Source of the DNA: Candidatus Bathyarchaeia archaeon
GTDB taxonomy: Archaea > Thermoproteota > Bathyarchaeia > Bathyarchaeales > Bathycorpusculaceae
DNA: 64,000 nucleotides
Assembly: GCA_049515895.1 (NCBI GenBank)
Contig: JBEKTQ010000001.1
Coordinates: 128,001-192,000, forward strand
Reading direction: 5' to 3'
Positions 16,407 through 44,234 of the stretch are shown piece after piece (positions within the stretch are counted from its first letter, which is position 1; each line of letters begins with the position of its first letter). The notes beneath the pieces were generated by a model. It was given only the letters and a program-made list of their open reading frames with translations, made no database searches and was not told the origin of the DNA. The position numbers were made by a program, and so were the translations under genes.

Positions 16407-16742
16407 TTATGCTGCAGGTTTGTAGATTTTGAGGTTATGGCTTCCGGAGACGAGCTGTATTGCGCCACATGTTTCAAGCTGTTCCAAAAAATCTTTTGCA
16501 GTGCTAATTCGGATGTTGTACCTTGTTGCGACCACATATGGTGTTAGAACACCCATCTTTTTGATTTCAGCGACGATTTTGTCGTTTTTAGCGTCTGGCG
16601 TCACGATGCTGGCGGCTTTTCGCTCTTTCGGAGGCCCCGCTTTTTCCTTTTTCTTCTCTTGCTTAGCTTCGTCTTGAGTGACCTGCTGCTTCTCCATCTG
16701 CTTTATGCCAAGTTTCTTTTTTCCACCCATGGATTTTTTCAC
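16407..16742 (-). CDS. rps25e: 30S ribosomal protein S25e (eS25)
   Basis: Lys-rich MGGKKK N-terminus, TPYVVATRYNIRISTAKDFL winged helix, KIY end. Confidence 0.88.
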   Translation of the reverse strand: MKKSMGGKKKLGIKQMEKQQVTQDEAKQEKKKEKAGPPKERKAASIVTPDAKNDKIVAEIKKMGVLTPYVVATRYNIRISTAKDFLEQLETCGAIQLVSGSHNLKIYKPAA

Positions 16743-16765
16743 CTTGATTTTTTTGTTCTCAACAT

Positions 16766-18274
16766 CTAGAATGGCTGGCTTATTTCAACTTTATGTCGCT
16801 CTTTCCATTCTTTGAGTGGAATGCCAAGTTTCTTTTCAACTTCGGCTCGGTGGATGGAATTCATTGTGCAGAATGGAATGATGCGTCCGTCTGGTACGGC
16901 GTAGTGGATTAGGCAGCGTTGCACTCTCTCAAGGTCAAAGTTGTACGGATCCATAAAATGCATCGATGAAAGAAGAATCGATTGTCTCTGCAAGTTACCC
17001 AGCGAGTCATAGTCGCCTTTAGTGACTACGCCTAAAACGTATTTCCTTAGGAACCCGAATTTTATGTAACGCATTGATCCGACTAAGCGTAGTTTGGCTT
17101 TGTTCTTGCTTCCCTTCGACGCTGTCTCGTAAACCTTGTTCATTACTCCTATGAACTTGTCTATGTTGCCGTATTTTGTGATTGGAACTATTTTGCCGTT
17201 TTCAATCAGAAGGTAAGTTGCCATGCCGCAGTGCGGGTGTGCGGTGAATTCTAAGTATCGTCTGTCCTTTAATGCTCCAACGGCTTTTGAAACTGGCACA
17301 ACCGTTGGGACTGGGTAGAAGTCTGAAACTTTGATTAATCCGTTTGTTTGTTCTTCGACGTTCTTCATGAAGTCGGGGATGGTGATTCGCATGCTTTCAC
17401 GTTGCTTTTGCGGTAGCCTTCCGCACAGGCTTACTGGTTGAACGTTTATGCATCTTACTATGTCGAAGTTTCTGGCGGCGAAATTGATTATGTCGCCAAT
17501 TTGTTGGTCATTTACGCCTTTAACAAGTGTGACGACAAGGACGATGCTGTCCCACCCTGCTGCACGAAGATTTTCGATCGCCTTCATTTTTGTTTCTAGC
17601 AGGTCCACACCGCGGATAAACTTGTAAACTTCAGGAGTTAACCCGTCGAACTGCAGATAAATGGTGCTGACTCCTGCCTCTTTGAGTTGTTTGCAATATT
17701 CTACGCTTTGCGAGAGTCGAAGCCCATTCGTATTGACTTCCACGTGGCTGAAACCAAGCTCTTTTGCTTTCCGAACAAAATCGAATAGTTCTTTACGTAT
17801 TGTTGGCTCTCCTCCTGAGAACTGGAGCGCCGTGGCTGCTACTGGCTTGTTTGCTCGAAGGTTTTCGAGCATGCCAATGATTTGCTCTTTGGTCGGTTCG
17901 TAAACGTAGCCTGCTGCTGCCGCGTTTGCGAAGCAGACTGGACAGGTTAGGTTGCACCTGTTTGTGACATCTATTATTGCAAGTGCCGTGTGAGATTTAT
18001 GCTCGGGGCAGATGCCGCAGTCGTATGGGCATCCGTTCTTTTTCTCGGTCCTTGGATTGGCCATGCCTTCGCCGTCGTAGCGGAATTTTTCTGCCCGCAT
18101 GTATTGGTCGTAGTCTGACCAGTAAAGTTCCTGGAAATGCCCATGTTCAGGGCAATCTTTCTTGATGAAGACTTTTTCGTCTTCTTCGTAGATGGTTGCG
18201 TCTATGGCCTTTAGGCATTCAGGGCAAATGCTTCTTGTCGGTTTGATATCTTTCATTTTTTTGCCTTCTAACAT
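16766..18274 (-). CDS. tes: Radical SAM tetraether lipid synthase (Tes/GDGT-MAS, MJ0619 family)
   Basis: N-terminal CPEC..CPEHG metal site, CPYDCGICPEH, CNLTCPVC radical SAM motif, C-terminal HPHCG, RCLIHY, IPFC. Confidence 0.85.
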   Translation of the reverse strand: MLEGKKMKDIKPTRSICPECLKAIDATIYEEDEKVFIKKDCPEHGHFQELYWSDYDQYMRAEKFRYDGEGMANPRTEKKNGCPYDCGICPEHKSHTALAIIDVTNRCNLTCPVCFANAAAAGYVYEPTKEQIIGMLENLRANKPVAATALQFSGGEPTIRKELFDFVRKAKELGFSHVEVNTNGLRLSQSVEYCKQLKEAGVSTIYLQFDGLTPEVYKFIRGVDLLETKMKAIENLRAAGWDSIVLVVTLVKGVNDQQIGDIINFAARNFDIVRCINVQPVSLCGRLPQKQRESMRITIPDFMKNVEEQTNGLIKVSDFYPVPTVVPVSKAVGALKDRRYLEFTAHPHCGMATYLLIENGKIVPITKYGNIDKFIGVMNKVYETASKGSKNKAKLRLVGSMRYIKFGFLRKYVLGVVTKGDYDSLGNLQRQSILLSSMHFMDPYNFDLERVQRCLIHYAVPDGRIIPFCTMNSIHRAEVEKKLGIPLKEWKERHKVEISQPF

Positions 18275-18343
18275 CTATGAGGTTGCGAAGTGCTTAAGAG
18301 CTAATGTGACGATAATAAGGTTTCCAAACGTTTCCTAAGGTGA

Positions 18344-19111
18344 TTGAGGGGAAAGACCATGTCGATTGACGAGAACACGCGCAGCGCCCTTCGAGAAATG
18401 GGTTTGAACGCCTACGAAATCGACGCTTATGCTACGCTTCTGGAAGTTGGGCAAATGACGGCTATGGAAATCAGTCGAGATGCTAAAGTCCCCTACAGCA
18501 AAATGTACGAGGTTCTAAACTCGCTCAAAGAAAAAGGTTGGATAAAAAGCAACGAAACCCGACCCTTCAAATATTATCCTGTGCCACCGCTCGAAGCAAC
18601 AAGGTCCACCAAGTTACGGTTGGAGGATAAGTATTTGAGTTGGGAAAACACCATCGCGGAAACTCTTCAACCCCTCTACGAAAAACGGGAACTCGTCGAG
18701 CGACCTGATATGCTCATTCTTCGAGGGCAACAAGCGGTGCTGAGCAAACTTGAAGAGGTTTTGGGCAAAGCAGCTAAAGAAGTTGTGATTGCAGCACCGG
18801 AATTTGCCAAACCCGTCATTGCTTTAGCTGAACCCTTGCTGGGAAGCGGTCTGAAGAAGACTGTTAACATTAAGCTTATGGCTGCAGGCAAAAAGGAAGA
18901 TTGGCTTTTCTTAAAGAAAATTTCTGCTTTAAACGAGTTGCGTATCCGCGACCATATGTTCGGCGGCGGCGTGATCGCTGATGGCAAAGAAGCCATGTTG
19001 TTTTTAGGCGAAGACAAGCCCACTCTCGTTATTTGGAGCAACCACGTAGGGCTAGTTGGATTCGCGCGTGAATACTTCCAGTTTCTCTGGGACTCCTCAG
19101 CAACCGCCTAG
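18344..19111 (+). CDS. TrmB family transcriptional regulator
   Basis: LREMGLNAYEIDAYATLL..A.EIS..AKVPYSKMYEVL.SL HTH plus PLD-like C-terminal domain; ATG at 18359 likely. Confidence 0.9.
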   Translation: MRGKTMSIDENTRSALREMGLNAYEIDAYATLLEVGQMTAMEISRDAKVPYSKMYEVLNSLKEKGWIKSNETRPFKYYPVPPLEATRSTKLRLEDKYLSWENTIAETLQPLYEKRELVERPDMLILRGQQAVLSKLEEVLGKAAKEVVIAAPEFAKPVIALAEPLLGSGLKKTVNIKLMAAGKKEDWLFLKKISALNELRIRDHMFGGGVIADGKEAMLFLGEDKPTLVIWSNHVGLVGFAREYFQFLWDSSATA

Positions 19112-19209
19112 ATTAACTTGCAAATTTAGAAAAACGCTTTGCTTGCTCCAAAACTTGATGCCGACAGCTTACAAAAAAAGAAGAAAGGAAGGAACTTGTT
19201 ATAAGGTTA

Positions 19210-19431
19210 TTATCTTTCCATGACTTTTCTTGCGGCTATCTCAATATCTTCCGCTTTGATGGTTTTTCTTCCAGCGTGCATCGCAAAATCCAGTGCTTCC
19301 TTGGCAATCTTTACTCCGATTTCTTCGAGAGCCTTCGCGAGTTCCTTTGCTGCTGCTTCACTTACTCTGTCAGCACCCGCTTTCTTGCATAAACGGTGCA
19401 TGGGGGCTACAGCTATTTCTAATTCTGTCAT
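19210..19431 (-). CDS. Archaeal histone (HMf family)
   Basis: [16 protein letters not shown]...[14 protein letters not shown] histone fold. Confidence 0.95.
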
Positions 19432-19565
19432 ATCGACTTCTCCACAGCCTCTTTTTCTTTTTAAAGCAATATTTAAGGTTAGCGCATCAAACTATGTGAA
19501 AAAAATTAAACATATTGCAAATAAAGAGCACAAAACCGTAAACTCTATTTTTAAAATAAGCAGAG

Positions 19566-19898
19566 GTGACTTATATGACTGTTGATTGGAAACTTAGCCA
19601 AGCAGAAGAGGTTTTCATTAATCTCTCTGAAGATTCAGAAATCACTAATTTCCTTAATCATCAAAAGAAAAGCACCAGAAACACTTACTCAGCTTACATG
19701 AGACGTCTGAAAGAATTTACTAATGAGACAGGTCAAGAAATCTTAGCAGAATTAACATACAAAAAGCAGTTTCAAGGCACGTTAGCAGAAAAAGCCATAG
19801 TTGAACTATTGCTCGATATCAGGGAGCAAAACGAGTCTAACAACGGAAAGAAGAAAGCTGCTATGTTAGTGGTTTTAAATAAGCTCAGAATGGGCTAA
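19566..19898 (+). pseudogene. Truncated tyrosine-integrase N-terminal (SAM-like) fragment fused to an unrelated tail
   Basis: ITNFLNHQKKSTRNTYSAYMRRLKEFT resembles the integrase N-terminal S-T-x-x-x-Y helix; no catalytic domain follows. Confidence 0.55.
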
Positions 19899-20143
19899 GT
19901 TTCCAGTTATAGTACGATGGTTTTATCACTTGATTTATCCATCGCGCTTAACCTTTGAGCAATACATAGCAGAAAGGGGATCAGTTTCCTCTGACATGCG
20001 CGCGCGATATGTAGTATAACAACAGATCGGCAGTTTAGTAAAATATCCTAAGTCTCTTTCTATACCTATTTGTTGTCGAGGCAATGTAGACCATATCCAT
20101 ATGCTTAAGTACCAAGTATAGAATAGTATCCTTAGGCTTTGAA

Positions 20144-20680
20144 ATGTCAAAAGTAGAGAAGAGAAAAGAAAAAAAGGACGAGCCTGACTCATTAATTAAT
20201 GCTACGGATAACACCATGGATAAAGATGCGCTAAGTAAACTTAGAGAAGAGTTATTCGCTGATATCATACCTGTGGAATCAATAAAGACTATAAGAAAAG
20301 GAAAAGAACCTAAATACTCTAATCTAGCAGCGGCTATAAAGCTAGTAGGTAAGATGTCAAGGAATGCCTACAGATTAAACCTTGAGAAAGTGTTCCAATT
20401 AGATAACTTTAGTAATCTAAATCCTAAAGAGAAGAAAGCATTGGTAAGAAAGGTCTATCCAATACTGGATCGATATTTAAAGGAGTTTGCAAGTACACAT
20501 GGCTATGATCTATCTAAGAAAGAAGTAAAGAAGACCAAACAAGGAAAAGAGATCCTCATTAAGGGAGTTAAGATGGCTACACTTCCAGAGTACGCTAAAT
20601 TCAAAAAAGAAACTATAAGTATGAGACTAGTTGGATCTGATATCTACCTAATTAAGCAGAGTGATATACCAATTGAATAG
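20144..20680 (+). CDS. Lys-rich hypothetical protein, possibly DNA-binding
   Basis: 178-aa basic ORF in the island; no family recognised. Confidence 0.65.
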   Translation: MSKVEKRKEKKDEPDSLINATDNTMDKDALSKLREELFADIIPVESIKTIRKGKEPKYSNLAAAIKLVGKMSRNAYRLNLEKVFQLDNFSNLNPKEKKALVRKVYPILDRYLKEFASTHGYDLSKKEVKKTKQGKEILIKGVKMATLPEYAKFKKETISMRLVGSDIYLIKQSDIPIE

Positions 20681-20720
20681 ATATATTAGATAGCTATCTT
20701 TTATATTACATGAACAGAGC

Positions 20721-21506
20721 ATGTCAAATGATGAAAACACGGATCTATTGCTTGGTCTGGGTTTGAGTCTTAATCAGGCAAGGGTTTATTTAGCAATACT
20801 CAAACTGGAAAAAACAACAATAGGACAGGTAGCGAAGTTTTCAAAAGTACGCAGAGAAGACGTCTATAGAATTATGCCGTCACTCGAAAAAATGGGTCTG
20901 ATAGAAAGATTAATGGGCAAACCAGCTGTAATCAGGGCTACCCCAATCTCGGATGCCTTAAGCTTTCTAGTGGCTGAAGAAAAAGTCAAATCTGATGATC
21001 GTTTAACGGGGATGCGGAGTAAAGTCCAAAAGTTGTCTCTCAAGGATTGGAAACAGCCAGTTCTTGCAGAAGAAAGCATTTACATACTGATAGCGGAAAA
21101 GAAAGCAATTTTAGCAAAGACTTCAGAACTGATTAGAAATTCAAAAAAAGAGGTCGCGTTGATTGCCGACAAGGCAAGAATCATACCGACTTTGTCTCAG
21201 TTTTCAGAAGAATGCAAGCAGGCAATAAAGAAAGGCAGTCAGATTTGCCTAATTTTTGAAGGAGACGGTCCTGACGTTTTGCTCAAAGAAAAAGTCCAAA
21301 AACTCATCGATGGCACGTCTGTTCATATCAAATTTCATCGTGAGTCTTTGAATCACTTCATAATGTCCGATGACGAGGAAGCGTTGATTACTACCTCTAA
21401 AGAAAGCGGGTTAGGCGAGAGTCCTTCTCTTTGGACAAACAACAGCAACCTCATAGGCGTTATAAGAAAAAGTTTTGAATCCGACTGGAAAGAAGCTGAA
21501 AACTAA
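20721..21506 (+). CDS. TrmB-like HTH regulator
   Basis: LGLSLNQARVYLAIL..SKVRREDVYRIMPSLEKMGLIE HTH plus PLD-like C-terminal domain. Confidence 0.88.
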   Translation: MSNDENTDLLLGLGLSLNQARVYLAILKLEKTTIGQVAKFSKVRREDVYRIMPSLEKMGLIERLMGKPAVIRATPISDALSFLVAEEKVKSDDRLTGMRSKVQKLSLKDWKQPVLAEESIYILIAEKKAILAKTSELIRNSKKEVALIADKARIIPTLSQFSEECKQAIKKGSQICLIFEGDGPDVLLKEKVQKLIDGTSVHIKFHRESLNHFIMSDDEEALITTSKESGLGESPSLWTNNSNLIGVIRKSFESDWKEAEN

Positions 21507-21915
21507 CCCTTTTTATTGTTTACTAGTGAGTTGTTTGGACACATCTGACAAAATAATCTTAGAAGTCGTTGACATAGTGTTATCCAAACTGGACTTTGTA
21601 AATAAAGAAGAGTTTTATTCAATCCTTAAGGAAAAATACAAGCTTGATAAAACTAACCTCAGCGAAAACCTTGATACATTCCAATTAGCCCTTAAGGAAA
21701 TATATGGAATCAAGCACCTCAGAGTAGAGCGGTCACTAATTAGAGTTCTACATGAAAGGGCATTAAACGGTTACTATGAACTTAGCGATGAGATTACAGT
21801 TTTTTTGTTGATGGTTAAGGTTTTTTCTACTGATGTAAACACAGAATTAGAAAAATCGAAAGAAAAACTAAGATTGTCGCATTTCTATGAGAAAGTAAAC
21901 GATGCCAAACGCTAA
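21475..21915 (+). CDS. Hypothetical helical protein (start uncertain, possibly GTG 21526)
   Basis: FYSILKEKYKL...FQLALKEIYG..HLRVERSLIR pattern resembles small TACK-archaeal helical domains. Confidence 0.55.
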   Translation: MNPTGKKLKTNPFYCLLVSCLDTSDKIILEVVDIVLSKLDFVNKEEFYSILKEKYKLDKTNLSENLDTFQLALKEIYGIKHLRVERSLIRVLHERALNGYYELSDEITVFLLMVKVFSTDVNTELEKSKEKLRLSHFYEKVNDAKR

Positions 21916-22132
21916 GGGCAGAAAGCAAAATTAGTTTTCTTTTGGTAACTTGGTGAAATTTCCAGAGACCCTTAAACGGTTAGGGCTTTTAACGAGTGCA
22001 TTCAAGGGTTTGGATGTATTCAGTAGAATTTAGCTAGTTTTCATGAAGATAAGTCTTAAATCTGCATAGCGTAGAAAGAACAGCAATAAGGGAAGAGAGC
22101 TGTTTGTCAAGACTTGAAAGCATTAGATTACG

Positions 22133-23068
22133 TTACGCTCTTGGTAAAGAAACCTCACCCATCTCGTAATAAGCGTTCTTCATTTCCTTGAAAAGAGATG
22201 CATTTCCAAAGTAGAGATTGTCTTGATACTCAATAGCCTTAACATTTACAAGCTCTTCCAGAACATATGGTAATCTGAAGTAAACTTTTGATTTAGTCCC
22301 ATATAACATAGCAATATGGTGCTCAAAAGAATCTTTTTTCCAATAGATCAATTCTTCCGCTTCTAAAGCTGGTCTATAATAACAGCTATCAACATGAACA
22401 ACCGTCTCGAGTTGAGAAATGCCAAAGGTCTCTCTTAGAGCGGAATAACGGGTCTTGATTATGTGAGAAAGAATAGATGTATTTAGCTTCTCGGGGTCAT
22501 TGTCCGTTCCAACGCAGAGTTCAGTAAACATATTTCCATATGAATATCGATTATTCTCATGCTCAACTATTTCTAAACTTTCAAGTAATTGCAGGTACTT
22601 TCTAAGTTTGATAGCTTCTTTGATAGGAAGGGCATCAATATCACTATCTGGTATAGTCTTGTTCCATTTCAATCGAGAAATAATCATTCCGATTTTACCT
22701 AAGAAAAACTTGGCTTCATTTGTTTTAGCTAATTTGTCGGATGATGCCTTCACAATTATTTTTTCTGCTCGTTCTTGCCAGATATTAAGATAATCTGAAA
22801 GATTGTTTACGCAATCATCTCTTGAGGTTGCCTCAATGGATTGAAGATTTTCTGCAACTTTAATAGCTCCAAGTCTGCGAAGAGAAAGGAATTTCACGAT
22901 TCTCTCTTCAGGGCAACGGTCGTCATGGATAATTCGAGGATAGTCAGATTGTAGCTCTGCAATCCATCCTTTTCCTTCAGGATCAAACTCAGGTTCACCA
23001 ACAGAAATGAGGTTGCCATAATGTTGAATTGCGTAATTACGAATTACAGACTTAACGCTCATTCCCAT
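22133..23068 (-). CDS. Hypothetical protein, partner of the C39-like peptidase; possible winged-helix segments
   Basis: 311-aa ORF overlapping the end of the peptidase gene. KLRKYLQLLESLEIVEHENNRYSY and VLEELVNVKAIEYQDNLYFG look like wHTH helix-plus-wing units. Confidence 0.8.
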   Translation of the reverse strand: MGMSVKSVIRNYAIQHYGNLISVGEPEFDPEGKGWIAELQSDYPRIIHDDRCPEERIVKFLSLRRLGAIKVAENLQSIEATSRDDCVNNLSDYLNIWQERAEKIIVKASSDKLAKTNEAKFFLGKIGMIISRLKWNKTIPDSDIDALPIKEAIKLRKYLQLLESLEIVEHENNRYSYGNMFTELCVGTDNDPEKLNTSILSHIIKTRYSALRETFGISQLETVVHVDSCYYRPALEAEELIYWKKDSFEHHIAMLYGTKSKVYFRLPYVLEELVNVKAIEYQDNLYFGNASLFKEMKNAYYEMGEVSLPRA

Positions 23069-23687
23069 TTTCTAATCCCTTTTCTTGCTCGAGTAATTCT
23101 TTTCCCAGAGGAAATTCTTCTAACATCCTTTGTTTCTTTTTACCTATTTTAACTTTTATTAGAACTCGGTCTTCTTCATCCCATAAGGTGACAAAGTCAG
23201 TAATTTTTGCGGTCTTTTCGCCATATATCGGGTCATTATAATAAATCTGACCACTTTCTCTTTCTATACCTGTAATCACGACAGCATGAGCGCATTTCTT
23301 TATGTGCTCTTCATCATAGAGGCGAATCCACGCTATTGGGGGTTGATCATCCCCAATTTCACTTTCTATTTCATCTAATGTATGTGAACTTAGTTTTAGT
23401 TCAAATTCAATCGAAGGAATAGAAGACGCCAATTCGCTGATCTTATTAGAGTTTAAGTTTAGAACTTTGTCTGGAAAAGTCCCATCCTTCTTTGTTTCAA
23501 TTATTTTTCCTATCTTTTCCAAATCGAAGTCTGGTACACGACTTCCTTCAAATTCATTGGCAACAAACATGAAAATCATTTTAATGCATCTTGGAACGCA
23601 AGAAAAACCATCTTCCTGACGAGGTACCACCATAGGCAAGATAGTCGAGGCGTGACAATAGCACCTGATTATGCCTAATTTGTCCAA
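23052..23687 (-). CDS. C39-like (papain fold) cysteine peptidase
   Basis: Q-x4-SC (PRQEDGFSCVPRC), HAVVITG and IYYNDP.YG give the Cys/His/Asp arrangement; no signal peptide or ABC domain. Confidence 0.82.
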   Translation of the reverse strand: MDKLGIIRCYCHASTILPMVVPRQEDGFSCVPRCIKMIFMFVANEFEGSRVPDFDLEKIGKIIETKKDGTFPDKVLNLNSNKISELASSIPSIEFELKLSSHTLDEIESEIGDDQPPIAWIRLYDEEHIKKCAHAVVITGIERESGQIYYNDPIYGEKTAKITDFVTLWDEEDRVLIKVKIGKKKQRMLEEFPLGKELLEQEKGLENGNER

Positions 23688-23999
23688 CTCGTATATCAGA
23701 TTTGCCCTTATTAGCTTGAATGGATGAGAGGATAATGTTCAATTAGGGATATTTTAAAAAACCATCCCTTTTGTTTATTCGTTCTACAGTTTGAGACCAC
23801 TTACGGCTAAGCAATATTCTTTATAAGACACTATCTATCCCATGTTTAAACAAAAAAACTAAAGGTTGAATGAGCTTGAGAAAAGCAATATTTAACTTTT
23901 TTTGTGCCTTTTAGTTTAAATTATCGACATATAACCTTGCCCAGCAGAGAAAGAAAATTATAAGAAACACTCAACAATGATAATCTTGCAGGGAAAAGA

Positions 24000-24773
24000 A
24001 TGAAGTTCATCGATGCTCATTTGCACCTATCAGATACCGAATATGTCGGTCACATTGATGAGTTAATTGCGGACGCAAAGGCTGCGGGTGTTGTAGCGCT
24101 AATGACAAATTCCATGGATTTAAGAACTTGCAAAAGCGATCTGGAAATGGCAGAAAAATACTCTGGCTTGGTTTACCCCGCCCTGGGAATTCATCCATGG
24201 AACGTAAATGTCCTCACAAACAACGAGCTTGAGCAAGTCATCGAACTGATAGCGGAGCAAAGAAGAGTGGTAAAAGCAATAGGCGAAATTGGCTTAGACT
24301 CCAAGTATGAGACCGTGTGGGAAAAGCAAATGATGGTTTTCGACAAAATGCTACGGCTTGCAGAAGAGCTTGAGCTTCCTGTGATAATCCACAGTCGCGG
24401 AACAACCGACAAAATAATAGATATGCTTCCTTCGTACCATCTTAAGCGAGTCCTGTTTCATTGGTTCGGCTATCCGTTGAGCACGCTGTCCAAAGCGATG
24501 GATAGAGGGTATTTCATCACTGAGGGGCCACCTGCAGCCTACTCGAACGGAATACGGGAAATCATAGAAAAAGTGGCGCTGACACAGTTTTTAACAGAAA
24601 CAGACGGTCCAGTCAAGTATTACAAGCTTCCCTTCAGTGGGCAACTAACTAAGCCTTCATTCATCAGCAAGGTTATTGAAGCTGTGGCTGAAATCAAAAA
24701 GATGCCGGTTGACGAGGTTGCCCAGCAAATATTTGAGAACTTTCAAGTTTTCTTTAACATAAAACTTAACTGA
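24000..24773 (+). CDS. tatD: TatD family nuclease
   Basis: IDAHLHL, GIHPW, AIGEIGLD, PVIIHSR, LTETDGP. Confidence 0.94.
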   Translation: MKFIDAHLHLSDTEYVGHIDELIADAKAAGVVALMTNSMDLRTCKSDLEMAEKYSGLVYPALGIHPWNVNVLTNNELEQVIELIAEQRRVVKAIGEIGLDSKYETVWEKQMMVFDKMLRLAEELELPVIIHSRGTTDKIIDMLPSYHLKRVLFHWFGYPLSTLSKAMDRGYFITEGPPAAYSNGIREIIEKVALTQFLTETDGPVKYYKLPFSGQLTKPSFISKVIEAVAEIKKMPVDEVAQQIFENFQVFFNIKLN

Positions 24774-24925
24774 AGCGGCTCTGAATGCCCTTAAAAGTTT
24801 TTTTTTACACTTTGAATAGGCGCTACTAAGCGTAAACTTAAATTAAACCATTCATCTATTGGGAATTGCTCTTGCGCTTTTCAAGCGTCGGACACTAAAC
24901 TATTGATTAGATGAGGATTTGGGAT

Positions 24926-25162
24926 TTGGGAAAAGTTAAGACTGATCAAGTAAAAAGAGCTGGTAAAGAACTGATGCATCGGTTTCCAGAAAAATTCAAC
25001 ACCAACTTTGACGAAAACAAGGTTGCTGTTGAAACTTTAACGCAGGGAACAACCACGCGGGTTAGGAATCAAATTGCTGGTTACATTACTCGCACAAACG
25101 CGCTGGCTAAGGCCAATTCGGGAACCGAACCGATTGAAAGTGACGAAGAAGATTCAGAGTAA
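24926..25162 (+). CDS. rps17e: 30S ribosomal protein S17e (eS17)
   Basis: (M)GKVKTDQVKR, FNTNFDENK, RNQIAGYITR; TTG start at 24926. Confidence 0.94.
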   Translation: MGKVKTDQVKRAGKELMHRFPEKFNTNFDENKVAVETLTQGTTTRVRNQIAGYITRTNALAKANSGTEPIESDEEDSE

Positions 25163-25187
25163 TCTCTCTTAAAAAAGGAAAACCTAC

Positions 25188-25565
25188 ATGATGGATGGCT
25201 ATAGGAAAGGGTGGGCACTGCGGTACCTTCGTGAAGCAAAAGCTGAGTTGGAAGCAGCAAGAAAAATCCCTTATATGGCTCCAGGATTGGTTTTAGAAGC
25301 AATCAGAAAAGCGAGAAACGCTATTTATTACAGCCTAGGCGAGCCTGCCTTCATTGAAATACTCATTCGGGAAGAAGTCCTGAAAAACCCCGCTACGACC
25401 GATTCAATTTTGCGTTTTCTAATGGAAATCGAATCAGTCGTCCAACAGATGCAACAGTTAGAAGAAGTGAACGGAGATGCAATGATGAAACAAGCAGACT
25501 CAATCGTTGGAATAGCAACTGACATCGTGGAAACGTTGACCGAAGAAAGAGTACCCAACTCCTAG
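25188..25565 (+). CDS. Hypothetical all-helical protein, HEPN-like
   Basis: WALRYLREAKAELEAA N-terminal helix resembles HEPN domains. Confidence 0.6.
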   Translation: MMDGYRKGWALRYLREAKAELEAARKIPYMAPGLVLEAIRKARNAIYYSLGEPAFIEILIREEVLKNPATTDSILRFLMEIESVVQQMQQLEEVNGDAMMKQADSIVGIATDIVETLTEERVPNS

Positions 25566-25630
25566 GTCCAACCATTGGGCGCGCAAACAATTTTAACGTT
25601 AATGTCAATTCTATATTCTAAGCGAAAACG

Positions 25631-25915
25631 ATGGTGCTTACAATAAAATTCATTGGCGCGCTACGCCACATAACAGGCAAAACGCAGTTGACCATCAACT
25701 TTGAAAAAGAAATGTCGCTGAAAGAATTGCTCGCAAGAATCAGCCAAGAAATGCCAAAGCTAGAAAAATCCTTTAGCGACCAGCAAAATGGCGATTCGAC
25801 ATCCAACGCCTTGATACTAGTCAACGGGAGGGAAATCAGCGTTTTGGAAGGTTTACAAACCAAGCTAAGTGATGGGGACGAAATCGTTTTTGTTCCCGTT
25901 GTGCATGGCGGTTGA
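25631..25915 (+). CDS. MoaD/ThiS/SAMP ubiquitin-like protein
   Basis: IKFIGALR, ILVNGREI, LSDGDEIVFVPVVHGG with C-terminal GG. Confidence 0.92.
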   Translation: MVLTIKFIGALRHITGKTQLTINFEKEMSLKELLARISQEMPKLEKSFSDQQNGDSTSNALILVNGREISVLEGLQTKLSDGDEIVFVPVVHGG

Positions 25916-25918
25916 CCC

Positions 25919-26698
25919 TTGATGATTACCTTGACAAGCGACTTTGGGCTAAAAGACCCGTACGTGGCAGAAATCAAAGGTGTGATTCTGACAATAAGCC
26001 CCAACTCAACCTTGGTTGATATAACGCATCAAGTTGAAAAATTTAACGTTCGAGCTGGTGCATTCACGTTGGCTTCCGCTGCACCGTACTTTCCCGACGG
26101 CACCGTCCACTTGGCAGTTGTTGATCCAGGGGTTGGCACAAACAGACGCGCGATAGTGATAATGACGAAAAAGGGCTACTTTGTAGGGCCTGACAACGGC
26201 GTTCTGGTTTTGGCATCCCACAGCCAAGGCATCGAACACGTGTACCAGTTGGCGAAATCGAAGTTTATGATGCCGAAGGTTTCTTGCACTTTTCACGGCA
26301 GAGACATTTTTGCGCCTGCAGCTGCATATCTCGATAAAGGTGTTCAACCCGCAGAGTTTGGACCAGAAATAGATGACCCTGTTACTCCTGAATTCGTTAA
26401 AGTGAAGTTTGATAGTGGTTCGCTAACTGGCGAGGTTTTAGATGTAGACGGCTTTGGCAATATAATCACAAATATAAACGAAAAAGACTTAGTTTGTAAA
26501 GAAGGCCAGACCGTCAACGTAGAATTTGCAGCCTCCAAGTTCCAACTTACATTTGGAAAAGCATACGCTCAGGCAAAACCCAAAGAACCCATTCTTTTAG
26601 TTGGCAGTCACGGTTTTTTGGAAATCGCTTTAAATCAAGCAAGCGCAGCCGAAAAATTCCATGTGAAAGCTAGAGACAAAATCAAAGTCGTGGCCTAA
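25919..26698 (+). CDS. SAM hydroxide adenosyltransferase (DUF62, fluorinase/chlorinase family)
   Basis: ITLTSDFG, VVDPGVGT, GPDNG, TFHGRDIFAP, DGFGN, LEIA. Confidence 0.92.
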   Translation: MMITLTSDFGLKDPYVAEIKGVILTISPNSTLVDITHQVEKFNVRAGAFTLASAAPYFPDGTVHLAVVDPGVGTNRRAIVIMTKKGYFVGPDNGVLVLASHSQGIEHVYQLAKSKFMMPKVSCTFHGRDIFAPAAAYLDKGVQPAEFGPEIDDPVTPEFVKVKFDSGSLTGEVLDVDGFGNIITNINEKDLVCKEGQTVNVEFAASKFQLTFGKAYAQAKPKEPILLVGSHGFLEIALNQASAAEKFHVKARDKIKVVA

Positions 26699-27669
26699 AG
26701 GGTCTTCACAACTTTTTCGATCACGTCAACGGGGTTCTCTAACTCCGCAAGATTACTTTTTACATCAAATCTTTTGCAAAGATACTTCTTCGCGTAAGCC
26801 AGTACTCCTCGTTCTGTTGTGGCAAATAGCGGGAACCCCTTCTTGGTCAAGTAACGGTTAACGTTGGTTTTCGCCATGTCCGAAACGGCTATGCTGGGGA
26901 CACCTTGGAGCGCTGCTTCCCTCGCAATCGTTCCACCGTAGCTAACGACTAAATCCGCGTTTGCAACCAAGTTTGCTGAATCCACAAATCCTTCTTTGAA
27001 TCCGAAGGCTTCGCCTTGCGTGCTGTATCTTTCTATGAAATGAACATTGCCTAGCTTGCCGAGTTTCTCTGCCATCAATTTTGCGAGGTCTTGCTTGCCT
27101 CCCGCGTAAGCAGCTTTGGTTTCCATTTGTCTGATAACTATAAGCGGCTTCTTTAGTCCGTCAATTTTTCTTTGCTTGAAGTCCTTAATCCAAGCGACCT
27201 CGTCGACGCCTTTGAAAGGAACCCTATTTTTGGCGCAGTGCTGAGTGACAAAGCTTTTCGGCAGCGCCTCCGACACAACAACCGTGTGCGCAAAAGGTAT
27301 TGTTAGCTGGTTGACGGCTGTGGCATGTGGGGTGTCTGCGGTTAAGATGATTGGGATTCCGAGGCCGAAGGCTGTTCGGCAAAGTTCAACCGATTGATGT
27401 GCGATGGCGACGTCTGGGGGGTTATCCTTGAAAAGCTCGGCGAACCCCATTACTCGTTCGGCGCTTTCTTTAAGCCTTGAGGTAAGTGTGGACGGGTTGT
27501 ATTTGCCTATGACGATTGGTTTTTCATCGAGAATCTTAGCCATCGGCAGCGTGTCTGGGTGTTCACGCGTCGTAAAAACGTATTCATGCCCCGCTTTCCT
27601 TAGCCGCTGTCCGATAGCTGACCCATACCTCACGTGTTTGCCCGTGCATGCGTCATACCAAATTTTCAT
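26695..27669 (-). CDS. DUF354 family protein (GT-B fold)
   Basis: MKIWYD..TGKHV, FKGVDEVAWI, GGTIAREAALQGVPSI. Confidence 0.85.
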   Translation of the reverse strand: MKIWYDACTGKHVRYGSAIGQRLRKAGHEYVFTTREHPDTLPMAKILDEKPIVIGKYNPSTLTSRLKESAERVMGFAELFKDNPPDVAIAHQSVELCRTAFGLGIPIILTADTPHATAVNQLTIPFAHTVVVSEALPKSFVTQHCAKNRVPFKGVDEVAWIKDFKQRKIDGLKKPLIVIRQMETKAAYAGGKQDLAKLMAEKLGKLGNVHFIERYSTQGEAFGFKEGFVDSANLVANADLVVSYGGTIAREAALQGVPSIAVSDMAKTNVNRYLTKKGFPLFATTERGVLAYAKKYLCKRFDVKSNLAELENPVDVIEKVVKTL

Positions 27670-28178
27670 TTCTTCACCTTGCGCTTTGCCTCAATGAACT
27701 CTTTCCGTTTAGCTTCATATTCCTCCAAACTCATCACGAAAGCTGCTGGAACGCCTTGAGAGACAGTTTCAGACCGCACACTTTTGGTCACGACGCTTCC
27801 GCCGCCGATCACTGCTTTTTCGCCTATAGTTACGTCTGGAAGGACAGTGACTCCTCCGCCGATTACAGCGCCGTTTTTGATGACTGGTGGGGTCAGAAAG
27901 GTGCTTTTCGGGTACTTGTCATTTAAAATTGAACTGTTAGGCGCGATGAACACGTCATCGCCTAGTACGACGCCGTTTGAGATTGTTACGTGTGCCTGTA
28001 TGTTGCAGTTTTTGCCTATAACCACGTTTTTGCCTATGTCACAGAAACTACCGATGAGGGTGCCGTCGCCGATTTTTGTGTTATCGCCAATCACAACGTA
28101 ATTCCAGATTGCCACGTTTGCGCCTATCTGGACGTTTGCTCCAGTGACTACACCTACGCCTTTCTTTGGATTCTGCAT
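27666..28178 (-). CDS. Hexapeptide-repeat N-acyltransferase (WbpD-like)
   Basis: Left-handed beta-helix repeats (IGDNTKIGDGTLIG), NDKYP, GVPA. Confidence 0.88.
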   Translation of the reverse strand: MQNPKKGVGVVTGANVQIGANVAIWNYVVIGDNTKIGDGTLIGSFCDIGKNVVIGKNCNIQAHVTISNGVVLGDDVFIAPNSSILNDKYPKSTFLTPPVIKNGAVIGGGVTVLPDVTIGEKAVIGGGSVVTKSVRSETVSQGVPAAFVMSLEEYEAKRKEFIEAKRKVKK

Positions 28179-41853: not shown

Positions 41854-41999
41854 ATAATATCCTTCCTGCCAATGGGGATTAGATAACTCGTCATTTTTAA
41901 TATCTTAATCAAATAGAAAAATGTAGCTGAAAATTAACGCGAAACGCCGCTAACACTATTAAACTAGCAAATTCAATATGCTGTTTGAATGGCGAGTTC

Positions 42000-44234
42000 A
42001 TGTTGAAGATTGCTGAGTTGCCTGTTCCAGACCAAGTAAAAGAAATCCTGCAGAACATGGGAATTGTAGAGCTTTTCCCGCCTCAGGAAGACACCATACG
42101 GGCAGGTGTGTTGGAAGGCCAAAATATCGTGTTAGCCAGCCCCACAGCGTCTGGGAAAACGTTGATTGCTGAACTCTGCTCGCTCAAACATGTGTTGGAA
42201 AAAAACGGCAAAGTAGTTTATCTCTCGCCGCTTCGAGCTCTGGCAAGCGAAAAATTCGAAGAATTCAGAAAATACACTTCCATCCGTAAACAGGACGGAA
42301 GAAAAGTTTCTGTTGGCATCAGTACAGGTGACTTTGATACTGCTGACAACTGGCTCGAACGTTACGACATAATCGTCACAACCAACGAGAAGGCTGATTC
42401 TCTTCTGCGGCACCGGGCCAAATGGATGAATGAAATCTCGCTTGTGGTAGCCGACGAAGTTCACCTTCTCAATGATGCAGGGCGTGGTCCCACTCTTGAA
42501 ATTGTTTTGGCCAGGCTGCTGCAGGTTAATCCTGACATTCAAATCTTAGCGCTGAGCGCCACAATAAACAACGTTGACGAAATAGCGGGCTGGTTAAACG
42601 CCAAGTACATTGTCACCGAATGGCGTCCAGTCAGCCTAAAGGAAGGCGTGCTTCTGCATGATGAAATCCAATTCAAGGACGGCGACGCAAAAAGAATTGA
42701 GCGGAAAACACGGTACCCGACAATAAACCTCGTTCTAAACACTCTGAAGACTGGCGGTCAAGCCTTGGTTTTTGCTTCAACACGAAAAAACGCGGTTTCA
42801 GCCGCCAAAACCATTTCTCAGCACACAGGCGAAGTCTTATCCAAACCCATGAAGAGGTCGCTTGAGCATGAGGCTGAAAAAATCCTCTCCGCTGGCGAGC
42901 GAACTCAAATTAGCGACACCTTGGCTGAGCTTGTTCGATGCGGAACTGCTTTTCACCATGCAGGGTTGGCAGGTGCTCACCGCAAGCTCATTGAAGATTC
43001 GTTCAAGGAAGGCAAGATCAAAGTTTTGACGGCAACCCCGACTTTGGCTTTCGGCGTTAATCTCCCAGCAAGGACAGTTATTATTCAAGATTACAGGCGT
43101 TTTGAGCCGGGCTATGGCAACTACCCCATTAGCGTGTTAGAGTACAAGCAGATGGCAGGAAGGGCAGGCCGACCAAAATACGACAAGGTAGGCGAATCCA
43201 TTCTTCTCGCCAAAACTTCGGATGAAGCCGACTACTTGATGGAAGGCTACGTTTTGGCTAAACCAGAGCGGATTTGGTCCAGGCTGGCAGTTGAAAAAAT
43301 CATGCGTGGACATGTGTTGTCAACTGTTGCATCGGATTTTGCTCATACGGAAAACGGGATTTACGAGTTCTTCGGAAAAACATTTTACGCTTACCAGTAC
43401 GACGTTAAATCTATCAAGAGTATTATCGGTAAAATCTTAAAGTATCTCTACGAAGAGGAAATGATCGGCGTAAACGGAGACGAAATCTACGCTACAATGT
43501 TCGGCAAACGAGTAAGTGAACTCTATATCGACCCCTTGTCGGGCGTTGTTATCCGTGAAGCCCTCAAAAACAAGCCCAAGGAACCAACAGATTTTGGTCT
43601 GCTGCATTTGATTTCTCACATGCCTGACATGGGGCCAGTCATGCGGCCCTACGCACGGGAAGTTGACCCGCTTGCGCTTGCTTTAGAGAAGCATCGCGAT
43701 GAACTTTTTATTGATGTACCAAATGAGTGGGAGGACCGTTTTGGCTTTGAAGAGTTTCTTGGCGAAATCAAAACTGCTCTTGTGATGAAGAGTTGGGTTG
43801 AAGAGGTAAGCGAGGAAAACCTGATCCAGCAATTTAACGTGCAGCCAGGCGACCTGTACCGCACGATTGAAAACGCGAAGTGGCTTCTTCACGCAACGGA
43901 CGAACTAGCAGGGTTGTTTGGATACAAAGAGGTTCGCCCCTTAACCAGCGAGTTGGTCGAACGGGTTTCTAAAGGCATAAAGAAAGAACTCCTGCCCCTC
44001 GTTCGGCTCGAGGGCGTCGGCAGAGTCCGCGGACGCATAATGTTCGACGCAGGCTACCGAACCATCGAAGACATAAAACATGCTTCTGTGGAGGAATTAA
44101 CTAATCTGCCGCTGATGGGTCCAAGACTTGCCAAAAAAATTAAGGAACAGGTCGGCGGCTTCGTGAAAAAGGACACTTGGGAAAAACTCAGCAGCGAGCA
44201 GGATTTTAAGCAGCGAGCGCTGTCTGAATTTTAA
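42000..44234 (+). CDS. hel308: Ski2-like DNA helicase Hel308/Hjm
   Basis: PTASGKT, DEVH, LSAT, FHHAGL, QMAGRAGRP, HhH tail and C-terminal QRALSEF PIP-like motif. Confidence 0.95.
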   Translation: MLKIAELPVPDQVKEILQNMGIVELFPPQEDTIRAGVLEGQNIVLASPTASGKTLIAELCSLKHVLEKNGKVVYLSPLRALASEKFEEFRKYTSIRKQDGRKVSVGISTGDFDTADNWLERYDIIVTTNEKADSLLRHRAKWMNEISLVVADEVHLLNDAGRGPTLEIVLARLLQVNPDIQILALSATINNVDEIAGWLNAKYIVTEWRPVSLKEGVLLHDEIQFKDGDAKRIERKTRYPTINLVLNTLKTGGQALVFASTRKNAVSAAKTISQHTGEVLSKPMKRSLEHEAEKILSAGERTQISDTLAELVRCGTAFHHAGLAGAHRKLIEDSFKEGKIKVLTATPTLAFGVNLPARTVIIQDYRRFEPGYGNYPISVLEYKQMAGRAGRPKYDKVGESILLAKTSDEADYLMEGYVLAKPERIWSRLAVEKIMRGHVLSTVASDFAHTENGIYEFFGKTFYAYQYDVKSIKSIIGKILKYLYEEEMIGVNGDEIYATMFGKRVSELYIDPLSGVVIREALKNKPKEPTDFGLLHLISHMPDMGPVMRPYAREVDPLALALEKHRDELFIDVPNEWEDRFGFEEFLGEIKTALVMKSWVEEVSEENLIQQFNVQPGDLYRTIENAKWLLHATDELAGLFGYKEVRPLTSELVERVSKGIKKELLPLVRLEGVGRVRGRIMFDAGYRTIEDIKHASVEELTNLPLMGPRLAKKIKEQVGGFVKKDTWEKLSSEQDFKQRALSEF

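Follow-up and report, generated by a model that had tools for sequence, protein, structure and literature searches.

What is a cytosolic protease doing in a small archaeal gene pair, with a tail resembling the motifs that bind PCNA, the clamp around which archaea and eukaryotes arrange their replication and repair? The question is raised by two overlapping genes at 22133-23687 of a 64,000-nucleotide stretch of a Candidatus Bathyarchaeia archaeon genome (contig JBEKTQ010000001.1, positions 128,001 to 192,000; hereafter the window). The upstream gene encodes a predicted C39-like protease and the downstream gene a partner protein. It is nearly certain that the pair is real and conserved, moves as a module of two genes and includes a cytosolic cysteine protease that looks active. 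Loci and genomes elsewhere are denoted by handles beginning with L and G, respectively.

The gene pair and its two proteins

The pair comprises the following features, with the basis of assignment in brackets where recorded:

23052-23687, minus strand: predicted C39-like cytosolic cysteine protease, 211 amino acids, TTG start at 23687 (open reading frame (ORF), Pfam, model)
23598-23618, minus strand: codons from Q24 (23616-23618) to the catalytic C30 (23598-23600)
23232-23288, minus strand: codons from H134 (23286-23288) to D152 (23232-23234)
23112-23132, minus strand: motif QRMLEEF (Q186-F192), similar to a PCNA-interacting peptide (PIP), preceded by KKK and modelled in the PCNA pocket
23055-23111, minus strand: variable low-confidence C-terminal tail past the motif
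23052-23068, minus strand: 17-nucleotide overlap between protease end and partner start (ORFs, sequence)
22133-23068, minus strand: partner protein, 311 amino acids, ATG start, of a family without a Pfam model
22823-23068, minus strand: partner N-terminal alpha/beta domain, residues 1-82 (model, conservation)
22535-22720, minus strand: partner winged helix 1, residues 117-178, isoelectric point (pI) 8.2 (model)
22199-22408, minus strand: partner winged helix 2, residues 221-290, pI 5.2, with the conserved motif HxDSxYYxPALEA (model, alignment)

Sequence and model together suggest that the first protein is a soluble, stand-alone, papain-fold (C39-like) cysteine protease in an active-looking state. 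Gene positions are given in 211-residue numbering, and protease positions in models, alignments and complexes in 193-residue numbering. Q24 and C30, which form a Gln-x5-Cys signature, H134 and D152 were all present; among 49 aligned relatives, H116 was invariant and Q6, C12 and D134 were at least 90% conserved (193-residue numbering). The protein exceeded the Pfam cut-offs for Peptidase_C39_2 (PF13529, clan CA; 27.4 bits vs. 24, residues 98-153 aligned) and Peptidase_C70 (23 bits vs. 19), both matches spanning the His/Asp half only. Its maximum 19-residue hydropathy was 1.27, hence no membrane segment is indicated, and no longer relatives of the protease were found.

The AlphaFold model of the protease (predicted local distance difference test (pLDDT) 87.4) matched 19 PDB chains at E ≤ 0.001 in Foldseek, led by PCAT1, PeiR, ComA and 3erv. 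The best match was PCAT1 8vp5_B (E 1.8e-5, template modelling score 0.58). The matches included the C39-like 3erv, the archaeal endoisopeptidase PeiR, 6mpz and AvrRpt2 and, more remotely, staphopain-staphostatin (1pxv) and papain-like toxin/immunity pairs (8ssm, 9l5u). As PeiR, staphopain and AvrRpt2 have this fold in common, specificity is not readable from it.

The protease gene ends in a TAA stop codon at 23052-23054, and an alternative ATG start lies at 23633 (M19). The database gene call (P0001) has 175 amino acids and begins at M37, as do the calls for many relatives; with that start the catalytic Cys30 is lost. Non-ATG true starts (window 23577-23687) are probably the cause of the short database calls.

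The partner has ATG codons at 23068 and 23062, and the 17-nucleotide overlap suggests translational coupling of the two genes. In the model of the partner (pLDDT 90.6), residues 1-80 form one helix with six strands; the model further has two long helices and a pair of winged-helix units at about residues 117-178 and 221-290. The N-terminal domain was the best-conserved region, with Y17, G18, W35, Y43, P44, D50 and G67 invariant. The whole partner is slightly acidic, with a pI of 5.8 against a family median of 6.4.

No match to the partner was obtained in Pfam, NCBIfam, PADLOC or PHROGs, and 0 of 69 distant relatives reached a Pfam cut-off. Its profile found nothing under E 0.09 among PDB sequences, its model gave 0 matches at E ≤ 0.001 against PDB and BFVD (Foldseek), and the Protein Atlas yielded no usable lead with the whole protein or with residues 1-95. 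The whole model in the VIA wide search returned generic winged-helix matches only (Z ≤ 8.9), the best being the PerR regulator (Z 8.9, 85 residues aligned, root-mean-square deviation (rmsd) 2.3). The N-terminal domain received one weak match in the whole-model search, the fungalysin propeptide 4k90_B (Z 6.5, rmsd 3.5, 73 residues). A profile search of 1.84 billion representatives at 50% identity gave 326 family members at E ≤ 0.001 and 239 at ≤ 1e-10, and relatives were uniform in length (at most 345 amino acids in all 150 matches listed). Judged from the model, the partner would constitute an undescribed protein family with a new combination of folds, an alpha/beta domain with two winged helices.

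The initial annotation had attributed to the protease intact Q/C, H and D residues and no signal or transporter domain, and to the partner a distinct N-terminal alpha/beta region followed by two segments like winged helix-turn-helix domains. The first two descriptions agree with the residues, hydropathy and stand-alone 211-residue length reported above, and the third is borne out by the model.

Conservation and mobility of the pair

Co-occurrence of the two genes, named in the initial annotation as a check, was confirmed as strict adjacency. A class sample of 401 genomes yielded the partner in 22 and the protease in 15. In 14 of these 15, and at 17 of 18 protease places, the protease was the immediate upstream neighbour of the partner on one strand; the exception was a 62-residue match with three stops. 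Eight partner places of the class sample had no protease match: a locus where the contig end cuts the protease, its last 22-29 residues still being visible (L028); a locus with a 24-residue protease remnant upstream of an intact partner (L027, 5500-5571); a partial partner match at a contig start with two internal stops (G237); and five weak partial matches. The 18 loci and the window together had 19 partner ORFs and 17 protease ORFs, L028 and L027 being the loci without a protease ORF, and the ORFs overlapped in 12/17 pairs.

A species-level collection overlaps the class sample, and its counts are therefore not additive to those above. The partner was downstream of 14/14 strong protease loci in this collection, with one partner split into two ORFs, and downstream of 0/9 weak C39-like matches. 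No third gene was conserved within 8 kb of the pair. Protease and partner were conserved over 94 and 116 clusters, respectively, at 90% identity.

Some members are damaged: at L084 (4476-5433) the partner is split into two ORFs, and at L017 (9550-9945) the protease frame has an internal stop. In a 211-residue database protein (P0076) the protease tail runs into a partner-like N-terminus, through a frameshift, read-through or a rare fusion.

In the window the pair lies on a discrete 4.4-kb insertion downstream of an archaeal histone gene, bounded as follows:

19463-19476, plus strand: left copy of the 14-bp direct repeat AAAGCAATATTTAA (repeat search, junction alignment)
23882-23895, plus strand: right copy of the repeat (repeat search, junction alignment)
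19477-23881, no strand: AT-rich inserted island between the repeat copies (GC profile, empty sites in same-genus genomes)

Guanine-cytosine (GC) content was 0.35-0.39 over 19-24 kb and about 0.43-0.50 in the surroundings. In a DNA search of 61 same-genus genomes with the window, the flanks (16501-19476 and 23882-27698) were found contiguous and overlapping by 14 bp in genomes with an empty site (among others G403, G404, G410, G420, G283, G415, G038, G399 and G324). Alignment of both window junctions with three empty sites placed the break point exactly at AAAGCAATATTTAA, a perfect direct repeat with only these two copies in the whole 3.18-Mb genome. ORFs, GC content and empty sites thus uphold the earlier description of an overlapping gene pair (23052-23068) in an AT-rich island.

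No integrase was recognised on the island, where a 110-residue ORF (19566-19898) gave a sub-threshold SAM-like match in Pfam (E 0.055). No tRNA genes or Rfam families were found in the window, and no tRNA serves as attachment site. The pair of a same-genus locus, L025, was considered as a marker of a common insertion site and rejected; its genome has the empty site, with the pair several kb away.

The pair was present in 6/40 sampled same-genus genomes and in 7/401 genomes of a phylum sample, two of the latter outside the class. Named records of the pair came from Bathyarchaeia and one Methanomethylicus (56% identity). Same-genus pairs were merely 31-36% identical to that of the window, and the closest pairs (63-70%) were in other families; PCNA was 86-96% identical within the genus. 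Three genomes had two pairs each. Because of the insertion, the low GC content, this pattern of identities and the patchy spread, the pair appears on sequence grounds to be a horizontally moved 1.6-kb cassette. Two contigs (L086 and L087) titled as bacterial Krumholzibacteriaceae carry a pair of the archaeal family, and a binning or labelling problem is possible there.

The protease tail and PCNA

The tail of the protease reads KKQRMLEEF, and the initial annotation had noted in it the QxxLxxF pattern that also ends a Hel308-type helicase of the window:

44211-44231, plus strand: QRALSEF, for comparison, the C-terminal motif of the Hel308-type helicase (41985-44234), outside the system

The pattern was found as described in both proteins, the Pfam-identified helicase ending in FKQRALSEF. 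Three further proteins of the same genome end in comparable motifs: PolD DP2 in KKPKQAKLFDFSS (motif KQAKLFDF), NreA in FQKKISDFFKA (motif QKKISDFF) and the Y-family polymerase PolY in RRQKQLTHFFQAS (motif QKQLTHFF). Basic residues precede the end-motifs of all four, as they do in the protease. Two other proteins in sampled loci have PIP-like C-termini, a DUF72 protein ending in VKQSQLGEFF (L064, minus strand) and a DUF488 protein ending in PQRTLGDFGSKV (L066, plus strand); these sequences suggest further unlisted PCNA clients of the lineage.

A lone QxxLxxF is no more than chance would give. The corresponding DNA pattern had 53 matches in the window vs. 46.8 expected, and Qxx[LIMV]xx[FYW] occurred 85 times in the last 30 residues across 3910 ORFs of the genome. 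The excess over chance lies in how well relatives keep the motif. The paired subfamily had 111 non-redundant proteases, of which 2 were truncated and 109 full-length. Qxx[LIMV]xx[FYW] stood directly past the last strand in 81/109; the Gln was one residue closer in 5/109, [LIMV]xx[FYW] occurred without Gln in 18/109, and 5/109 did not fit the motif (2 of them aberrant sequences). At minimum, [LIMV]xx[FYW] was present in 104/109.

The tail consensus was [KR]2-3-Q-[RK]-[ML]-L-[ED]-E-[FYW] after a basic linker. The motif was kept across pairs just 25-35% identical, and the 3-30 residues past it varied freely. Model confidence dropped from a mean pLDDT of 72 at residues 161-170 to below 50 from residue 172 on, which indicates that the motif lies outside the packed core. 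Conservation of the motif, the second check proposed at the outset, was found, and the tail that holds it is disordered in the model. The unpaired C39-like relatives stop right at the end of the last strand, with no tail (0/9).

Frequency by chance bears on the idea that the motif is a fortuitous likeness or a structural cap and that the pair is a functionless, decaying passenger of the island. By chance alone Qxx[LIMV]xx[FYW] occurs often, and one protease remnant, one split partner and one protease frame with a stop were seen. Set against these, both proteins are widely conserved (94 and 116 clusters; 326 representatives) and uniform in length, the catalytic residues are kept, and the motif persists amid a freely varying tail and, as modelled, lies free of the core. 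This idea is barely credible.

Co-folding of the protease (49-row alignment) with the PCNA of the genome (15-row alignment), also proposed initially, placed the tail in the canonical pocket of the clamp. The complex scored 0.82 (runs 0.84, 0.82 and 0.82) and the best of 3 controls 0.00; the score mark was met by 116/157 solved complexes and 2/215 mismatched pairs, a calibration that is approximate with custom alignments. Agreement between runs was at least 70% of contacts, and pLDDT in the partner chain of the complex was no lower than 79. Protease residues 167-177 (KQRMLEEFPLG, 193-residue numbering) contacted PCNA residues 40, 42-47, 124-128, 200, 226-227, 243 and 245-250, which form the hydrophobic cleft, the interdomain connector loop and the C-terminal tail in the model. 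These modelled contacts correspond to the human PCNA pocket as named in passages of PMC9240642 (L47, L126, P129, P234 and Y250). The complex model lends support to PCNA binding and shows likeness to solved PIP complexes. Overall, binding of the tail to PCNA is given about an even chance.

Several observations speak against PCNA as the ligand, the approximate calibration being one. Many PCNA-PIP complexes have been solved, so the complex score may reflect memory. In 23/109 relatives the Gln is shifted out of register or missing, and three paired members (QQDLFQRL, QQDLFKRL and QQTLINL) have no aromatic residue in register. QRMLEEF agrees with the first seven positions of Qxx[LIM]xx[FYW][FYW], but position 8 is Pro, and the second aromatic is thus missing; passages of PMC3504372 describe an archaeal RNase H PIP that also lacks it. 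The residue after the aromatic was P, D or G in 40/81 strict matches and hydrophobic or aromatic in 19/81 (V 9, L 5, I 3, F 2). The tail is also confined to the paired subfamily, so binding of the partner fits equally well.

That last point leads to the main alternative, rather unlikely overall, in which the tail binds the partner and not PCNA, and the protease has a dedicated inhibitor, chaperone or substrate with no link to replication. ImmA cleaves ImmR, and the protease may likewise cleave its winged-helix partner to switch a regulator. The tail is exclusive to the partner-linked subfamily (0/9 unpaired C39-like relatives), and the genes are strictly adjacent and overlapping. The protease fold matches 1pxv (staphopain-staphostatin) and the toxin/immunity pairs 8ssm and 9l5u, and the N-terminal domain of the partner is weakly like a protease propeptide (4k90_B, Z 6.5). 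A private interface would, however, be expected to drift, and the motif stays near the PIP core across pairs 25-35% identical. It also resembles the PCNA motifs of the same genome and is modelled in the PCNA pocket (0.82 vs. 0.00).

Possible roles and known counterparts

The reading preferred here, at somewhat less than an even chance, is that a protease tethered to PCNA and kept in check by its partner makes up a mobile module, whose role is probably one of conflict or addiction. The two genes appear to be a unit complete in itself and coupled in translation, which travels from one archaeal genome to another and came here with the 4.4-kb insertion. The tail motif would plug into the PIP pocket of PCNA and bring the protease to DNA-loaded clamps. 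The partner, made in step with the protease, would hold, inhibit or direct it through the conserved N-terminal domain and the two winged helices; once free of the partner, the protease would cleave replication proteins on PCNA, or the clamp region, and replication would stop. Such a module would resemble a toxin-antitoxin or abortive-infection system. A conflict or addiction role is favoured because the pair is patchy, horizontally moved, duplicated, insertion-borne and arranged as a compact overlapping operon. Of the traits of type II toxin-antitoxin systems, it has the compact, mobile and patchy two-gene operon.

A number of results count against the conflict or addiction role. Neighbours across the 18 loci were mostly housekeeping genes. 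Enrichment in defence islands, a further check named in the initial annotation, was not borne out: defence-like genes occurred in about 4/18 neighbourhoods (L016, L021, L022 and L024), as counts without a statistical test. No known defence or toxin family matched protease or partner. The most frequent toxin-antitoxin gene order differs from the one here, in which the protease comes first and a large partner follows. The partner is mildly acidic, so DNA binding or autoregulation is possible and yet not evident, and no fused protease-partner proteins were found among proteins of 339-2000 amino acids, which is weak evidence.

The pair had been proposed to lie outside named systems, and this held as far as PADLOC, the one library of defence systems searched, where PADLOC-DB 2.0 gave 0 families for the protease and 0 for the partner (E ≤ 0.1). 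The initial reading of a clamp-associated protease module gains partial support overall; its suggestions that the protease senses PCNA, cleaves the partner, or removes SAMP or DNA-protein adducts gain none from these results. No description of the pair appeared in the titles, abstracts and passages of the literature found by searches; the C39 mentions in passages of PMC4158269 and PMC6393860 concern other loci.

Replication or repair genes were neighbours at about 7/18 loci. At the same-genus locus L025 (8208-10827), protease, partner and Fen1 lie on one strand with short gaps. At L024 an MrfA-type helicase follows directly after the partner. Others were PCNA 2.4 kb away (L022), primase with GINS (L027) and an XPD-like helicase (L016).

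Such neighbours bear on a role in genome maintenance, in which a PCNA-recruited protease clears stuck or crosslinked proteins from forks, like SPRTN or Wss1, and the partner gives recognition of DNA or substrate. The docking model with PCNA would agree with this role, SPRTN combines a protease with a PIP box (passages of PMC9240642), and some pairs stand beside Fen1, the MrfA-type helicase, PCNA, primase/GINS or the XPD-like helicase. The figure of about 7/18 loci compares, however, with near 30% by chance (a rough estimate), so there is no clear enrichment, and several of these loci come from related genomes. The partner is not basic. The pair is patchy (22/401 class and 7/401 phylum genomes), and horizontal transfer, insertion and duplicates suit a selfish or conflict module better. 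Genome maintenance is unlikely to be the role of the pair.

A protein like ThiS/Urm1 that ends in Gly-Gly (25631-25915) adjoins a gene of the SAM hydroxide adenosyltransferase type and a DUF354 gene. This trio recurs near the same-genus L025 pair, and in the window it sits outside the island.

USP1 deconjugates eukaryotic PCNA, and the protease could by analogy be a deconjugase for Gly-Gly-ended ubiquitin-like modifiers (SAMP, Urm1 or ThiS type) on PCNA or PCNA-bound proteins. Its nearest solved folds are double-glycine peptidases (PCAT1, ComA and 6mpz), and a Gly-Gly-ended protein is encoded near the pairs of the window and L025. The ThiS-like gene lies, however, outside the insertion, in the conserved flank of genomes without the pair, no such gene was found at other pair loci, and the fold gives no specificity (PeiR, staphopain and AvrRpt2 are alike in it). 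Deconjugation is highly improbable.

Known systems are like the pair in part. It has in common with C39 peptidases (PF13529; PCAT1 and ComA) the papain fold and the Gln/Cys/His/Asp arrangement. Unlike those of the PCAT/ComA type, the protease is stand-alone and soluble, without ABC transporter or double-glycine leader genes nearby: the 146 neighbours at the 18 loci included no recognised ABC transporter, and no leader peptide gene of that kind was seen near them. The unpaired C39-like relatives have neither a C-terminal linear motif nor a partner gene, whereas the paired protease has both.

Archaeal PIP clients (PolD DP2, NreA, PolY, Hel308, Fen1 and RNase HII) have in common with the protease basic residues ahead of a Qxx[LIM]xx[F] core, a flexible terminus and the modelled pocket. 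The protease differs from them in lacking the second aromatic and in that its motif is followed by 3-30 variable residues and is not the protein end. SPRTN/Wss1 are like it as proteases with a PCNA-binding motif (passages of PMC9240642), which is predicted for the protease here. SPRTN is a eukaryotic zinc metalloprotease (HExxH) with SHP and UBZ in one chain, whereas here a cysteine protease has a separate partner and a mobile, patchy spread.

A precedent is given by clamp-directed toxins of bacteria (abstract of PMC12795458). RipA/RipB (same abstract) and SocAB are, like the pair, small mobile two-gene modules aimed at the clamp, an aim that would apply here by conjecture; they target the bacterial beta clamp and are not proteases, and no sequence or fold relation to the pair was seen. 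Staphopain-staphostatin and CdiA-CT/CdiI also encode a papain-fold protease beside a dedicated binding protein. In contrast to staphostatin and CdiI, the partner has 311 residues and two winged helices with no detectable likeness to them, and both proteins are cytosolic and archaeal. The kinds to which the pair may belong are thus known, namely PIP-bearing PCNA clients and proteases with a dedicated partner; to these the pair adds an undescribed partner family.

To our knowledge, the partners described for archaeal PCNA comprise polymerases, nucleases, helicases and the clamp loader, together with a few proteins whose activity is not known. The word 'protease' has 0 occurrences in a review of archaeal PCNA partners (PMC4929162). 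It may tentatively be proposed that the protease, of papain fold and tethered to the clamp by a mobile cassette, is the first of the archaeal PCNA interactome, with the clamp as platform or target of an intragenomic or antiviral conflict system and the partner as switch; the pair would then be an archaeal equivalent of the clamp-directed toxins of bacteria. If so, a PCNA-riding protease would add proteolysis to archaeal clamp biology, and a simple system of two proteins would be at hand for questions that are now addressed through SPRTN in eukaryotes. As a conflict module, the pair would mean that archaeal mobile elements target the clamp, like some bacterial toxins.

The partner in any case defines a family without a Pfam model, with 326 representatives at 50% identity and uniform architecture. 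As by-products, the analysis gives PIP-like C-termini of an uncultured lineage, listed for testing, and a small insertion with sharply defined ends and a matching empty site.

The island carries one other recognised piece of cargo:

19964-21508, plus strand: 178-residue ORF and TrmB-like regulator (multi-copy unit in the genus)

This unit was not linked to the protease-partner pair at other loci. Its ORF has 160-178 residues and no assigned function. Three copies stand in this genome at 81-100% identity, and 78-91% identical copies occur in many genomes of the genus; besides the window, the unit was seen at L101 (622-2136), L102 (1585-2370) and L100 (1244-2793). The unit may be a mobile or fast-spreading regulatory module.

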